A stretch of DNA of 64,000 bases from an uncultured Candidatus Saccharibacteria bacterium. GTDB taxonomy: Bacteria > Patescibacteriota > Minisyncoccia > Phycocordibacterales > Zambryskibacteraceae. The stretch spans positions 118,500 through 182,499 of the forward strand of contig CAZFAS010000001.1 in assembly GCA_964516975.1 (NCBI GenBank), read 5' to 3'. The notes beneath the pieces were generated by a model. That model was not told the DNA's origin, made no database searches, and worked only from the letters and a program-made list of their open reading frames with translations. Positions 3,209-62,708 of this stretch are shown here, one piece after another; the stretch's first letter is position 1; each line of letters starts with the position of its first letter. Position numbers and translations under genes: made by a program.

Positions 3209-3658
3209 ATGAGTACATCAAAACCACTTTTCTTTGCGTTTATTGTTGTTGCTTTCCTTGGATTTCTAGACGCCTCATATCTTACTGCGCACCATTACAG
3301 TGGAGTCCTTCCACCATGCTTTATAACCCAAGGATGTGATGTAGTAACAACAAGTGCTTACTCAACGATGCTTGGCATTCCTGTTGCACTTCTTGGAACA
3401 CTCTATTACCTCACCGTACTCGTACTCGGATTTATATATATTGATAAGAAAAAGGACTGGGTCATTCTCAAGGCATTACCCGTTGTAAACACACTTGGTC
3501 TCTTGGCTTCCGCATGGTTCGTCTATGCACAAGTCTTTATCATTCATGCACTTTGCATGTATTGTCTTCTCTCCGCAGCATCATCAACGACGCTTTTTAT
3601 TCTCATGATATTTCTAAGAAAAAGAATACTCCAAGCAACAAAAAACCCTCTCGCTTAA
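3209..3658 (+). CDS. VKOR-family (vitamin K epoxide reductase-like) membrane protein, DsbB functional analogue
   Basis: 4-5 TM segments, CxxC (CMYC) and loop Cys pair (PPCFITQGCD); immediately downstream of dsbA-like gene. Confidence 0.75.
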   Translation: MSTSKPLFFAFIVVAFLGFLDASYLTAHHYSGVLPPCFITQGCDVVTTSAYSTMLGIPVALLGTLYYLTVLVLGFIYIDKKKDWVILKALPVVNTLGLLASAWFVYAQVFIIHALCMYCLLSAASSTTLFILMIFLRKRILQATKNPLA

Positions 3659-3676
3659 GGCAGAGGGTTTTTTGTT
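3640..3676. terminator. bidirectional rho-independent terminator
   Basis: aaaaaCCCTCTcgcttaaggcAGAGGGtttttt between convergent genes. Confidence 0.6.
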
Positions 3677-3691
3677 ATAGATAGATAGCGA

Positions 3692-4105
3692 TTATTTCTT
3701 GGCGATATTACTATACTTTGCCCAACAAGGGGACGAGGCAATCCAAGGACGAGCACCTTCCTTCTCATAGAGGTATCTGGCATAGGCCATATTCCCCTCT
3801 GTAGTGTAGATGTCGTAGCCGAGTTTTTTTGATTCCTCAAGGTGATACATTTCATTGATTTGCATCACCCCAACGTCATATCGATTGGCTACACCTCGGA
3901 ATATCTTCCCATTCTTATCAACTTGTCTGAAGTGTGATTCACATCGCGCAATGTCGATCATGATAGGAAGGTCAGAGAAATATTGATTTACTTTCTCCTC
4001 AACCGTAAGTGGAACCGATTCTTCAGTACTCTGGGTACTATCTGTAGAATAACTTAAGTTATCTGCAATCATACCGTTTGTATTGAAGCCTGAAACAACT
4101 GCCAA
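3692..4105 (-). CDS. lytic transglycosylase-like protein (SLT/lysozyme-like domain)
   Basis: motifs IARCESHFRQ ... GVMQIN typical of SLT domain; TTG start in track, hydrophobic signal-like segment just upstream in frame so true start uncertain. Confidence 0.5.
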   Translation of the reverse strand: MAVVSGFNTNGMIADNLSYSTDSTQSTEESVPLTVEEKVNQYFSDLPIMIDIARCESHFRQVDKNGKIFRGVANRYDVGVMQINEMYHLEESKKLGYDIYTTEGNMAYARYLYEKEGARPWIASSPCWAKYSNIAKK

Positions 4106-60104: not shown

Positions 60105-60335
60105 CTACTGTTCTTGAACATCCACCGACAACATTTTACTGCCTGAGTGATGACCTGAAATTATCCTCACTTTACCCAAGGGGACGCCAAGCTCATGGGC
60201 AACAAGCTCTCGAATACGGGTATTGGCCATATTGCGCTCAGCAGGCTCTCGTACCGAAATGTCATAGTGGTCAAAACTCACCTTCTCCACGAGCTCTCGC
60301 TTAGCTCCTGCTGTTACTCGTACCTTTATATACAT
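60105..60335 (-). CDS. DUF167 (YggU-like) protein
   Basis: MYIKVRVTAGAKRELVEK...VREPAERNMANTRIRELVA... ; longer ORF to 60506 would run through tRNA exon. Confidence 0.55.
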   Translation of the reverse strand: MYIKVRVTAGAKRELVEKVSFDHYDISVREPAERNMANTRIRELVAHELGVPLGKVRIISGHHSGSKMLSVDVQEQ

Positions 60336-60467
60336 ACCCCCTATCATACGCGATACCGTACTGTGCTCAACAGTACTTTTGATTTTCAAAAGATATCTGA
60401 TATTATCTTTCTGTTCTGCTAAAACAGAACCATTCCGGAGTAGCTCAGTGGTAGAGCGATCGCCTGT

Positions 60468-61027
60468 GTCGGAAAGTTCGTGGTATAATTGCTTGGTGTA
60501 TACCAAGAAAAAAAGATTAGAAAAATGAACTTACGCCGACCGTCGAGCATATATGGTAATGGCAGTAACAAGGAGAAGAAGAAAACTCCGTGAGATGGCC
60601 AGAGAACAAGCCGGCGGAAAATGTGCATTATGTGGCTACAAAAAATGTCAGAGGGCTTTAAGCTTTCATCACGTAAACCCTAAAAATAAGGATTTTGATC
60701 TTTCTTCAAGGGGTTTAACGAGATCGTGGGAACGTATTAAAAAGGAAATCGAAAAATGCGTTCTCTTGTGTGCAAATTGTCACATGGAAGTACATGAAGG
60801 CATTACGCAGCTTTCTATCAAAAGATAGATTGAAAAACGAGGTGAATTCGGGGAAACCCAATTATTGGGCAATCCCGAGCCAAGCTCTAATGAAAGTTGG
60901 AGAAGGTGTAGAGACTATCCTTTATGGAGTAGTGTCAAAAACTTGATACGAAGCGCCTCGATCCTAAGTTCCAGATTGGAATATGGATATGATATAGTCC
61001 ACGCTTCTAGCAATAGAAGAATCAGTG
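60468..61027 (+). mobile_element. group I intron (560 nt) with internal HNH homing-endonuclease ORF
   Basis: 5' exon ends in U, intron ends in G; conserved core elements P (AATTCGGGGAAA), Q (AATCCCGAGC), R (GTAGAGACTATCC), S (GATATAGTCCAC). Confidence 0.7.
60553..60828 (+). CDS. HNH endonuclease (intron-encoded)
   Basis: CxxC...HH..N...CxxCH zinc/HNH motif (CALCGY...SFHHVNPKNK...CANCHMEVH); extended -10 TGGTATAAT at 60477. Confidence 0.75.
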   Translation: MVMAVTRRRRKLREMAREQAGGKCALCGYKKCQRALSFHHVNPKNKDFDLSSRGLTRSWERIKKEIEKCVLLCANCHMEVHEGITQLSIKR

Positions 61028-61079
61028 TAAGCGATTGGTCGTAGGTTCGATCCCTACCTCCGGAGCATGCAAAAATCTT

Positions 61080-61112
61080 AGGCCGTCAGAAATGACGGTC
61101 TTTGATTTTTTA
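61080..61112 (+). terminator. rho-independent terminator after tRNA-Asn
   Basis: GGCCGTCAgaaaTGACGGTC + TTTGATTTTTT. Confidence 0.6.
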
Positions 61113-61294: not shown

Positions 61295-61612
61295 ATGGCG
61301 ACGAGCAAGACACAGGATATCAAGACTTTCAAGAATCAAACCGGATACTGGGAGCATGATGGAGCATTTTCCGTCGAACTGACACCCAGTGCCGACAAGA
61401 GCATCGTACCGCCAAACGCAGAGATCCGAGTCGACACAGTTCATGTGAGACACGGACGCATCAAACAAACGATTGGTGGTATCCAGCTCTACTCGGAAGG
61501 TAGCCCCCTTTCTACTGGGGCTACGCACACATCAAGATCATTCGCGACGGAAGCGGCAATCTCCTGTGGGTCAACCATAACTACAGATAAGTTTCACCTC
61601 TCCACCGCCTGA
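61295..61612 (+). CDS. hypothetical protein (moron-like array gene 1)
   Basis: promoter TTGACT-17-TAGTAAT, GAGG SD; 105 aa; TGA stop. Confidence 0.4.
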   Translation: MATSKTQDIKTFKNQTGYWEHDGAFSVELTPSADKSIVPPNAEIRVDTVHVRHGRIKQTIGGIQLYSEGSPLSTGATHTSRSFATEAAISCGSTITTDKFHLSTA

Positions 61613-61650
61613 CAGAAGCCGTTCGCTTCTGTGGGCGGTTTTCTTTTGTT
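61603..61650 (+). terminator. terminator (variant of repeated CCGCC...GGCGG cassette)
   Basis: CCGCC-tgaCAGAAGCcgttcGCTTCTGtg-GGCGG + TTTTCTTTTG. Confidence 0.55.
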
Positions 61651-61677
61651 TGACAAATTATATAAATGTGTTAATAT
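61650..61677 (+). promoter_or_regulatory. promoter TTGACA-16-TAATAT fused to terminator T-run
   Basis: repeated cassette. Confidence 0.5.
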
Positions 61678-61709
61678 GTTAACAGTACCTTCAAACAATC
61701 GAGGTGATC

Positions 61710-61997
61710 ATGTCGAAGAAGCAAGGTATGAAAAAACCTCTTCGGTCTTGGACCATTCTGCTCAATGAGCAGAACATCCGAGCTCGAATCGAGAAGGAAG
61801 AACCAGGAATGCTGAAATTCCTGGACTTCCTTGCGAGTAAGGAAAAGGTTCCGATGCAAGCTGGTCTTGTTGGATGGTCAGTGTTCACACACTGGCTCTC
61901 TTGTGCTTACAAGTACCTGAAGCACAGACCATCTGATGTTCCCTACTACAGCGACAATGCTGTGCTCGATGTGGTTTTCCCCGCAAGTAAGAGGTAA
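61710..61997 (+). CDS. hypothetical protein (array gene 2)
   Basis: GAGGTGAT SD; start MSKKQGMKK (track start 61704). Confidence 0.4.
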   Translation: MSKKQGMKKPLRSWTILLNEQNIRARIEKEEPGMLKFLDFLASKEKVPMQAGLVGWSVFTHWLSCAYKYLKHRPSDVPYYSDNAVLDVVFPASKR

Positions 61998-61998
61998 A

Positions 61999-62211
61999 AT
62001 GAAAATCCAGTGCGTATTGTTTAGTGGAACGGTCTCTGATGTCGAGTTGTTCAACAACGGCACATCTGCAAGTGTGACCGTAACCACACCACTTTCGACT
62101 CCCTGTGGAACTCTATACTTTCCAGTCGGCCAAAGGATTCAGTTCAGCAGAGTCCTAATCGAAGGAGACACGATTGTTCCTCAGAGCGGAGGAAGTATCT
62201 CCGTTCTCTAG
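61999..62211 (+). CDS. hypothetical protein (array gene 3, 70 aa)
   Basis: AAGAGG SD, start MKIQCVLFSG abutting previous stop (track gives longer 61936 start). Confidence 0.4.
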   Translation: MKIQCVLFSGTVSDVELFNNGTSASVTVTTPLSTPCGTLYFPVGQRIQFSRVLIEGDTIVPQSGGSISVL

Positions 62212-62222
62212 AAAGTTCACCG

Positions 62223-62252
62223 CCGCCCACACTGTGGGCGGTTTTCTTTTGT
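62223..62252 (+). terminator. terminator of repeated cassette
   Basis: CCGCCCACAcTGTGGGCGG + TTTTCTTTTG then TTGACA. Confidence 0.6.
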
Positions 62253-62320
62253 TTGACAGTTTTATATATATGTGATATTTTTTCAACAGATTATCGTTCC
62301 CTTCTCACCCATGAGGACTC

Positions 62321-62698
62321 ATGCCAGAAGATATATTTGCTGAAGTTCCTGAATTTCTCGCAGCATTTCAGAACATTCGAGAAAATGGCTTCTTTGAGAG
62401 CATGGATTTCAAAGTGGGCGGTGAGCAATTAGAAGGAAAGGTTGCGCATTTCTATATCCGCGCTGTAGGGTGTATTCCAAATAATCCAGACTTCATGGCT
62501 ATTGGTTGTGACGAAATCATCGATCCAGACAGAATCATCAATTCATGTCGAGCTCTTGTAAAACTGAGGAAAGTAAAGTCTGTACAGGTTAAAGTTGAAA
62601 CAGATGAATGGCCAAAATGGAACCGATCCGGCACGGAGATAACTGGAAGTAAAGGTAGACGCACAATTCTTTCGCTTTCAGTTCAGTTTAAGATATAG
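62321..62698 (+). CDS. hypothetical protein (array gene 4)
   Basis: 125-aa ORF. Confidence 0.4.
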   Translation: MPEDIFAEVPEFLAAFQNIRENGFFESMDFKVGGEQLEGKVAHFYIRAVGCIPNNPDFMAIGCDEIIDPDRIINSCRALVKLRKVKSVQVKVETDEWPKWNRSGTEITGSKGRRTILSLSVQFKI

Positions 62699-62708
62699 AA
62701 TAATCACA

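Follow-up and report, generated by a model that had tools for sequence, protein, structure and literature searches.

Group I introns between anticodon positions 35 and 36 of tRNA-Asn(GUU) genes (35/36 introns) were recently described in Patescibacteria by Nakagawa, Amikura, Omae and Suzuki (mSystems 2026, PMC13011429; preprint July 2025, bioRxiv 10.1101/2025.07.03.662931). Here, we analyze a locus in a 64-kb window (64,000 nucleotides (nt) of contig CAZFAS010000001.1, the whole stretch of DNA that was analyzed), in which an earlier reading of the sequence had proposed a tRNA-Asn gene split by a 560-nt group I intron carrying an HNH endonuclease gene. The locus is very probably a tRNA-Asn(GUU) gene of a Patescibacteria bacterium that is interrupted between U35 and U36 by a group I ribozyme of 560 nt and probably of IA type, with an HNH cassette in the loop of its P1 helix. 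The original prediction is correct, but the find is a further example of an already published class.

In the published class, the split genes are overlooked by tRNAscan-SE, while ARAGORN and tFind call them Thr(UGU) at 33/34 through a two-base shift. The authors demonstrated the self-splicing of a tRNA-Asn intron (GCA_016700035.1) in vitro, sequenced the product at the 35/36 junction, and used a terminal-G mutant as a control. They classified the introns as subgroup IA and reported four tRNA-Asn introns longer than 500 bp that encode PF01844 HNH proteins. Based on 95 complete genomes, endonuclease-bearing tRNA introns were judged rare, and intron-bearing and intron-less copies of the same anticodon were found to coexist rarely. 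The paper makes no mention of the position of the open reading frame (ORF) in the ribozyme, a promoter, leaderless expression, free-standing copies, or ORF decay.

The window shares with this class the host gene, the insertion site, the phylum, the invisibility to tRNAscan-SE and default ARAGORN, and the Thr(UGU) 33/34 miscall, and its structure is IA-like. The window genome lies outside the GTDB species representatives, among which the best HNH match is 87% identical. Thus, the window species is probably not among the genomes covered by PMC13011429. In contrast to the rarity reported there, we found that 214 species genomes encode this HNH protein. These numbers suggest that draft Patescibacteria genomes often contain tRNA introns with an endonuclease gene, as the authors of that study anticipated.

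The introns of Azoarcus tRNA-Ile and cyanobacterial tRNA-Leu(UAA) belong to subgroup IC3, interrupt their genes at 34/35 or 36/37, measure ~200 to 250 nt, and carry no ORF (PMC3984707 and established knowledge). They self-splice and, like the window intron, are group I introns in the anticodon loop of a bacterial tRNA and build P1 from anticodon-loop and stem bases; moreover, the J3/4-P4-P6 and P7 sequences are closely alike (GAAUUCGGGGAAACC..., GGUGUAGAGACUA). However, they lack P7.1 and P7.2, whereas the window intron is inserted at 35/36, has covarying P7.1 and P7.2 helices, and carries an ORF in its P1 loop. An endonuclease inside a bacterial tRNA group I intron is also represented by I-SspI (I-Ssp6803I), which PMC3984707, citing Bonocora and Shub 2001, describes as a PD-(D/E)XK homing enzyme of the Synechocystis tRNA-fMet intron at 33/34, aimed at the anticodon region of the intron-less gene. 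In contrast, the enzyme of the window class is a minimal zinc-binding HNH protein of ~106 to 110 amino acids (aa) with predicted activity.

In collaborative (trans) homing, a free-standing endonuclease is combined with an ORF-less intron at the same site, as for F-CphI and cyanophage psbA or T4 mobE and I-TevIII (PMC3984707, PMC2790892, PMC6083498). This geometry has been proposed as the precursor of composite mobile introns, with the free-standing endonuclease entering the intron (PMC3984707). It is shared by 13 loci related to the window, in which a free-standing HNH gene accompanies an ORF-less 35/36 intron; in one further locus, L065, the tRNA-Asn gene beside it has no intron. The known systems come from phages and protein-coding genes, whereas the present ones lie in bacterial chromosomes and involve a tRNA gene. 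Both the free-standing and the intronic state occur among close relatives, the window itself being intronic.

The split gene encodes tRNA-Asn(GUU)

Joining 60434-60467 to 61028-61065 in silico produced a 72-nt cloverleaf, which ARAGORN identified as tRNA-Asn(gtt). The product carries U1:A72, G73, and the anticodon loop CUGUUAA, reproducing the features that had been predicted, and matches the uninterrupted tRNA-Asn of locus L065 at 62 of 73 aligned positions. Asparaginyl-tRNA synthetase recognizes bacterial tRNA-Asn by the cloverleaf, the anticodon GUU, and the discriminator base G73, and all three are present in the spliced sequence. Exon 1 ends in U60467 and the intron in G61027, as the original prediction had stated, and its coordinates were all correct upon rereading of the sequence. 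It had also warned that the gene would escape standard tRNA finders; indeed, ARAGORN with default settings reported tRNA-Glu only in the 64-kb window and overlooked the split tRNA-Asn gene.

Because TGT occurs at both junctions (CCTGT^GTCGG... and ...CAGTG^TAAGC, splice sites marked by ^), a second register is possible, in which both splice sites are shifted two bases upstream and the product also folds into a cloverleaf, with the anticodon UGU. This was the register chosen by ARAGORN in intron mode, which called tRNA-Thr(tgt) i(33,560), two bases off the Asn register. The corresponding tRNA-Thr(UGU) gene would have exon 1 at 60434-60465 and an intron at 60466-61025, placed at 33/34, and its ligated product would read CCUUGUAAGCG. 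Its last exon base would be U and its last intron base G, as in the Asn register. The window sequence alone cannot choose between the two registers, and therefore related sequences were used. A scan of one genome per GTDB species identified 214 genomes with HNH relatives, of which the best 80 loci were analyzed.

We found that the 5' junction is CTGT^ without exception in 75 loci, while the 3' junction reads ...(A/G/C)(T/C)G^TAA... in every locus. In the Asn register, all 74 related introns end in G; in the Thr register, many of them would end in A (...AAA^TGTAA). In the window, G61025 and U61026 form the 3' strand of the P9.0 helix (see below), whose covariation just 5' of the terminal G fixes this base at 61027. 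The guide sequence GCAG pairs with the exon bases CUGU, and thus the wobble U is U60467. Furthermore, all 75 reconstructed tRNAs contain U1:A72 and G73, and ARAGORN assigned each of them to Asn(gtt), whereas the Thr register would require an anticodon that differs among loci (UGU or CGU) while these identity elements stay constant. Last, the uninterrupted tRNA-Asn in locus L065 reads CCTGTTAAGCG across the junction. Thus, the terminal G, P9.0, the guide pairing, the tRNA identity elements, and L065 together identify the gene as tRNA-Asn(GUU) with an intron at 35/36, the register that the original prediction had chosen. The Thr(UGU) register, in which the same two-base miscall was disproved by experiment in PMC13011429, is ruled out by the terminal-G conservation, the P9.0 covariation, and the identity elements, and we give it practically no chance.

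The intron has a covarying group I fold

The Rfam model RF00028 (Intron_gpI), which had been suggested as a check, matched 60768-61020 on the plus strand over its full length (1-253) with 64.0 bits against a gathering score of 50 (E = 6.4e-14). No second intron match to RF00028 was found within the 64-kb window. The strings previously named as the core elements P, Q, R, and S turned out to be the strands of P4 (60848-53 / 60873-78) and P7 (60913-18 / 60994-99).

The fold was tested on 69 aligned intron cores, spanning the guide sequence to exon 2. On this alignment, RNAalifold recovered P2, P4, P5, P6, P7, P7.1, P7.2, P8, and P9, and the structure was then drawn by hand to include the P3/P7 pseudoknot and P9.0. 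In the hand-drawn fold, 93.3% of the cells in the 69 introns are standard pairs, as compared to 36-45% when the partners are slid by one to three columns. Compensatory changes were detected in 37 of the 53 pairs, and the observed values were reached by 0 of 500 shuffles. In the window, all model helices form as drawn (Table 1), and the sole non-Watson-Crick pairs are G-U wobbles, including U43-G55 in P3 (U-G in 65/69 introns) and U60921-G60926 in P7.1.

The splice sites are held by conserved pairings. The guide GCAG is invariant in the 69 introns, and the P1 pair of the first intron base is G-C in all 58 ORF-bearing introns, as compared to A-U in six, C-G in four, and a mismatch in one of the ORF-less introns. 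At the 3' end, one position of P9.0 is AU in 66 introns, GC in 2, and GU in 1, while the other is UA in 40 and CG in 28. Three structural hallmarks of group I introns are thus present: a P3-P9 core with the P3/P7 pseudoknot, a G-U wobble at the 5' splice site, and an omega-G positioned by P9.0. We had first assumed the classic IC3 assignment of tRNA introns from the similarity to Azoarcus; however, P7.1 and P7.2, which are typical of IA, and the published classification favor IA and point to an IA-like intron.

Two other pairings were rejected. The P2 of the Rfam model at 60772-60815, inside the ORF, was dropped in favor of the covarying hairpin at 60815-28 after the guide sequence. An alternative P1 between GUCGG (60468-72) and CCGAC (60536-40) appeared in the minimum-free-energy fold; it is unconserved elsewhere, and the fold is not significant (z = -1.6). 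Among the aligned introns, three ORF-less ones (L079, L080, and L087) contain ~40-70 nt of extra sequence between the halves of the P4 5' strand (J3/4-P4; alignment A2 columns 47-113), which the others lack.

The HNH gene overlaps the guide sequence and P2

Because P1 is formed by 60464-69 and 60805-10, its loop amounts to ~335 nt and holds the HNH gene. The 91-aa ORF at 60553-60828, which had been proposed to encode an HNH endonuclease in the 5' half of the intron, matched Pfam PF01844 marginally (22.5 bits, cut-off 21.4) as well as PHROG 2255 (1.1e-28) and PHROG 3106 (2.3e-25), both annotated as HNH endonuclease. The sole match among solved structures was the HNH (En) domain of a group II intron maturase. 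Nine residues (C24, C27, H39, H40, C73, N75, C76, H77, and H81) do not vary among 34 aligned homologs, and the window has all of them. The ratio of nonsynonymous to synonymous substitution rates (dN/dS) of the window ORF against its relatives is 0.05-0.10. The identification thus held, with the addition that the 91-aa ORF is what remains of a frame of 110 aa.

The HNH gene runs into the ribozyme. Its codons Thr-Gln (ACG CAG) are the guide sequence, and its stop codon UAG lies in the 3' strand of P2. Across loci, the ORF continues 13-64 nt past the first G of GCAG, the commonest value being 22 nt, as in the window. Gln is found at the guide position in 61 of 61 intronic HNH proteins and the motif xTQL(P/S) in 60 of 61; in contrast, only 1 of 14 free-standing homologs has Gln at the equivalent position. 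Thus, the C-terminal part of the HNH protein is constrained by the RNA.

The gene also carries its own conserved box. The extended -10 box that had been predicted for it, TGGTATAAT at 60481-60489, is conserved among relatives: TGGTATA(C/A)T is located just 5' of the start codon in ~64 of the 80 loci, at intronic and free-standing copies alike. Because free-standing copies have it too, the box is a feature of the gene rather than of the intron. In 34 loci, 6 nt separate box and start, and in 15 loci 9-10 nt, too short a distance for a Shine-Dalgarno sequence to fit. With such a spacing, transcription would be expected to begin at the start codon or next to it, which points to a leaderless mRNA.

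The box is at the same time part of an inverted repeat, TGGTATAA ... GTATACCA, formed by 60481-60488 with 60498-60505, the 3' arm of which spans the first HNH codons. Such a repeat (at least 7/8 positions paired, 8-9 nt loop) was found in 69 of 78 loci, as compared to ~7% of shuffled controls. The repeat could bind a protein, fold in the precursor RNA into a hairpin covering the start codon, or merely result from the combination of promoter and coding sequence.

The window carries a segregating nonsense allele of the HNH gene

HNH homologs begin ~19 residues upstream of Met 60553. In the window, the ancestral frame comprises 110 aa from GTG 60496, exactly 6 nt after the box, and has TGA at codon 11, where the homologs have Arg. 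An intact full-length HNH reading frame is therefore absent from the window, as it is interrupted by the TGA at 60526-28. Eight sibling metagenome contigs were compared with the window over the 632-nt split gene. Five match it completely, while two (L003 and L005) have C for T at 60526 (CGA, Arg) as the lone difference over this length. The remaining contig (L004) keeps TGA, but diverges inside exon 2. The TGA allele is present in six of the eight sibling contigs plus the window, and the CGA siblings, with their single difference, indicate that TGA is a recent nonsense mutation that is still segregating. Recoding of UGA (codes 4 or 25) was rejected, as the neighbors read normally under table 11, the homologs have Arg, and the siblings have CGA. 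The TGA allele has probably inactivated or weakened the endonuclease through the loss of the conserved N-terminal 19 residues and left the ribozyme intact. We read the window allele as the start of endonuclease decay, or at least of weakening, in an otherwise intact intron.

The divergent sibling L004 (jgi 3300045347 Ga0490050_008583, ~3480-3745) agrees with the window at every base throughout the intron and up to the fourth position of exon 2. From there on, the sequence of exon 2 and of its downstream flank differs, and the acceptor 3' strand mismatches exon 1. The contig is an assembly chimera, or else recombination took place where the intron meets the exon.

HNH relatives occur inside and beside tRNA-Asn introns

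An identical HNH protein is encoded on 23 metagenome contigs with the same neighbors (def, fmt, a ribosome hibernation factor, and DUF167). A protein search retrieved 415 HNH homologs with 67-88% identity, mostly 90-110 aa long, and the named ones came from Patescibacteria. The N-terminal extension ...SVVEQSPV... of two homologs (P0051 and P0107) is translated tRNA exon 1, a gene-calling artefact of an unrecognized split tRNA.

The 80 compared loci derive nearly all from Patescibacteria metagenome-assembled genomes (Paceibacterota, Nomurabacteria, Kaiserbacteria, and Zambryskibacteria). Judging from these genomes and from the shared gene neighborhood on metagenome contigs, the window itself probably derives from Patescibacteria. 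Sixty of the 80 loci have the HNH gene within a tRNA-Asn gene that is split exactly as in the window, while 14 have it outside the intron, beside tRNA-Asn. Thirteen loci combine a free-standing HNH gene with a tRNA-Asn gene whose 35/36 intron is ORF-less and short (216-331 nt). The free-standing gene is located immediately upstream on the same strand in L020, L025, L026, and L043, and on the opposite strand in L036, L061, L070, L073, L076, L079, L080, L083, and L087. In L065, it stands beside an intron-less tRNA-Asn gene.

By sequence similarity, the free-standing copies form no separate clade and are interleaved with the intronic ones. The free-standing HNH of L076 and the intronic HNH of L047 are 86% identical, and the cores of their introns 91%. 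A similarly close pairing of the two states was observed for L061 with L054 and for L043 with L059 and L049. This interleaving implies repeated relocation. We tentatively propose, giving it slightly less than an even chance, that the HNH gene is a self-contained cassette (extended -10 box, leaderless start, and ORF) that moved repeatedly between a free-standing site beside tRNA-Asn and the P1 loop of the 35/36 intron. The resemblance of the free-standing arrangement to collaborative homing is suggestive.

A Patescibacteria-type HNH gene by tRNA-Asn was also found in a locus labelled Burkholderiales (L015, HNH in the intron) and in one labelled Nitrospira sp. (L076, free-standing). Both are probably mis-binned contigs, with horizontal transfer as the alternative.

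Proposed splicing and homing pathway

We propose that the locus would give rise to a single precursor transcript, probably running from a promoter near 60379-60406 to a terminator at 61080-61111. The promoter scan found three sites against 2.6 expected, which makes 60379-60406 a weak candidate defined by its pattern match. In the precursor, CUGU of exon 1 and the first two intron bases would pair with ACGCAG (60805-10) to form P1, with U60467 in a wobble with G60807. A free guanosine bound in P7 would attack after U60467, and P9.0 would then set G61027 in the same site. Ligation of the exons would yield the loop CUGUUAA and a working tRNA-Asn with the junction ...CGCCUGUUAAGCG....

The HNH cassette would occupy the ~335-nt P1 loop, its 3' end doubling as guide sequence and P2, and its own extended -10 box would direct a leaderless HNH mRNA made apart from the precursor. 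Other HNH enzymes encoded in introns suggest by analogy that this protein may be a homing endonuclease acting on intron-less tRNA-Asn genes. It would cut or nick these genes near the insertion site, and repair would copy the intron in. The C-to-T change at codon 11 (CGA to TGA) would remove the conserved N-terminal 19 residues.

Alternative readings of the locus

Several points weigh against this pathway. The anatomy, covariation, splice register, and polymorphism of the locus are observed, whereas splicing of this copy is something we infer from sister introns, for which it was shown by others (PMC13011429). P10 is weak, as exon 2 UAA pairs just with UUA 60803-05 and C60806 stays unpaired (3 bp and a bulge). 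At 91-110 aa, the HNH protein would be very short for a homing enzyme with site specificity. The internal box has no -35 hexamer and was therefore absent from the results of the general promoter scan, and the conservation of a box that doubles as an inverted-repeat arm could stem from the hairpin. Moreover, a 91-aa product might still be made and active, since full-length homologs conserve Met 60553 and the remaining ORF shows no damage. A more radical alternative is that the locus is a decaying pseudogene, an unspliced tRNA-Asn copy disabled by its intron, with a functional tRNA-Asn elsewhere. The view is limited to 64 kb of the genome, outside which a second tRNA-Asn gene could lie, and the endonuclease gene has a nonsense mutation. 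However, every model helix forms in the window with G-U wobbles as the only non-Watson-Crick pairs, and the tRNA halves form a perfect cloverleaf. The split gene is also identical across most sibling contigs bar one ORF site, a promoter-like site and a terminator are present, and intron-bearing and intron-less copies of one anticodon rarely coexist (PMC13011429). We consider a pseudogene very unlikely.

The alternatives concerning the endonuclease gene carry more weight. The HNH protein of the TGA allele could still be a working homing endonuclease, made as 91 aa from ATG 60553 (e.g., by re-initiation after the 10-codon upstream ORF) or by UGA read-through. The 91-aa frame is undamaged and has all invariant residues, its dN/dS is low (0.05-0.10), its Met is at least 90% conserved in full-length homologs, and TGA is the commoner allele among the sampled contigs. 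Nevertheless, we regard continued activity as unlikely, since the lost stretch (RTYADRAxY and a basic segment) is conserved in all homologs, no Shine-Dalgarno sequence precedes ATG 60553, and no other scanned locus has an early stop (L050 and L085, in which box and start were mis-picked, were set aside). UGA recoding is not indicated by the neighboring genes, which are normal under table 11, and the low dN/dS mostly records the history before a very recent mutation. As for the TGGTATAnT box, it might be no promoter. Instead, an RNA hairpin (UGGUAUAC / GUAUACCA) with the box as its 5' arm could mask the start codon, either in the precursor or in an mRNA of greater length, and control translation or compact the P1 loop. 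This is conceivable, although we lean toward doubting it. An 8-nt repeat with an 8-9 nt loop is present in 69/78 loci as compared to ~7% of shuffled controls, its geometry is kept even where the start codon moves (ATGTATACC vs ATATGCCA), and a few compensatory changes occur (L069 and L072). On the other hand, the first loop base is T in 66 of the 69 loci, which is needless for a hairpin and corresponds to the invariant last T of the -10 hexamer. Position 8 is often A, as in the window, giving a perfect TATAAT and a mismatch in the stem. The repeat pairs are mostly conserved and not covarying, and the window segment prefers another hairpin, its folding being not significant (z = -1.6). The promoter and hairpin readings are mutually compatible.

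Significance for annotation and intron evolution

For genome annotation, the locus exemplifies a required tRNA gene that is missed by default tools and mis-assigned by intron-aware ones, with a neighboring ORF extended across it. Such misannotation affects the completeness scores of the small genomes of the Candidate Phyla Radiation. The P9.0 pairing combined with the omega-G rule provides a way to pick the splice register from sequence only. New beyond the published class are the scale (214 species genomes), the dual coding of the ORF C terminus with the guide and P2, and the free-standing-intronic-decaying series. Also new beyond PMC13011429 are the segregating nonsense mutation, the conserved extended -10 box, and the HNH cassette outside the intron in 14/80 loci. 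The series of endonuclease states makes models of the origin and death of mobile introns testable in one family. If the cassette indeed moves, a single family would display every stage of the proposed life cycle of mobile group I introns in living bacteria: an ORF-less intron with a neighboring endonuclease, a composite intron with an ORF recoded for guide and P2, and the onset of decay (CGA/TGA). The endonuclease-driven spread of Patescibacteria tRNA introns would then be common, not rare.

Table 1. Features of the split tRNA-Asn locus and its surroundings (window coordinates; ^ marks the splice site)
Feature	Position	Strand	Remarks
Pre-tRNA promoter-like site (TTGATT, 16 nt, TG-TATTAT)	60379-60406	+	28 nt upstream of the tRNA 5' end; consensus scan
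tRNA-Asn exon 1	60434-60467	+	positions 1-35: acceptor 5' strand, D arm, anticodon stem 5' strand, C32 U33 G34 U35
Group I intron	60468-61027	+	560 nt, between anticodon positions 35 and 36; RF00028 match and covariation-supported fold
P1 5' strand CUGU^GU	60464-60469	+	pairs with 60805-60810 (ACGCAG); U60467 wobble with G60807
Extended -10 box TGGTATAAT of HNH cassette	60481-60489	+	also 5' arm of inverted repeat
Ancestral HNH start, GTG 60496 (VYTKKKRLEK), with in-frame TGA 60526-60528	60496-60528	+	homologs read MYTKKKxxxRTYADRAxYM
HNH ORF, 91 aa	60553-60828	+	zinc-binding cysteines and H-N-H catalytic residues kept
P1 3' strand with internal guide sequence AC-GCAG	60805-60810	+	within HNH codons Thr-Gln
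P2 hairpin CUAUC-AAAA-GAUAG	60815-60828	+	5/5 pairs with compensatory changes; 3' strand has ORF stop UAG (60826-28)
P3	60838-44 / 60954-60	+	97% paired, 4 compensatory pairs; encloses P4 to P7.2 (region 60838-60960)
P4	60848-53 / 60873-78	+	5/6 pairs compensatory
P5	60857-59 / 60867-69	+	
P6	60879-81 / 60905-07	+	
P6a	60885-88 / 60899-902	+	
P7	60913-18 / 60994-99	+	guanosine-binding helix, pseudoknotted with P3; invariant, 99.5% paired
P7.1	60920-21 / 60926-27	+	covariation-supported
P7.2	60932-38 / 60943-49	+	all 6 pairs compensatory
P8	60961-64 / 60985-88	+	3/4 pairs compensatory
P9.0	A61001-U61026, C61002-G61025	+	two bases before the terminal G pair with two bases after the P7 3' strand
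P9 hairpin	61004-08 / 61015-19	+	
Terminal omega-G	61027	+	last intron base G in all aligned introns
tRNA-Asn exon 2	61028-61065	+	U36 A37 A38, anticodon stem 3' strand, variable loop, T arm, acceptor 3' strand, G73; CCA unencoded
Intrinsic-terminator-like hairpin and T run	61080-61111	+	9-bp stem, 5 G-C pairs, tail TTGATTTTTT; would end the tRNA transcription unit
DUF167 (YggU-like) gene	60105-60347	-	listed ORF runs to 60506 across exon 1; not part of the element

Neighboring genes

Downstream of the split gene, 61295-62700 holds several consecutive small ORFs on the plus strand, among them ones of 105, 95, and 125 aa, without a Pfam match; these ORFs are also called on sibling contigs. On the other side, the minus-strand ORF 60105-60506 (133 aa) had been suspected to be an over-call where it crosses exon 1. 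We found that the Pfam DUF167 domain covers aa 58-128 only, in agreement with that suspicion. The gene probably starts at Met54, the listed ORF being over-extended by ~53 codons across exon 1. All metagenome gene calls give the same 133-aa DUF167 ORF, and the artefactual N terminus is present in public protein databases.

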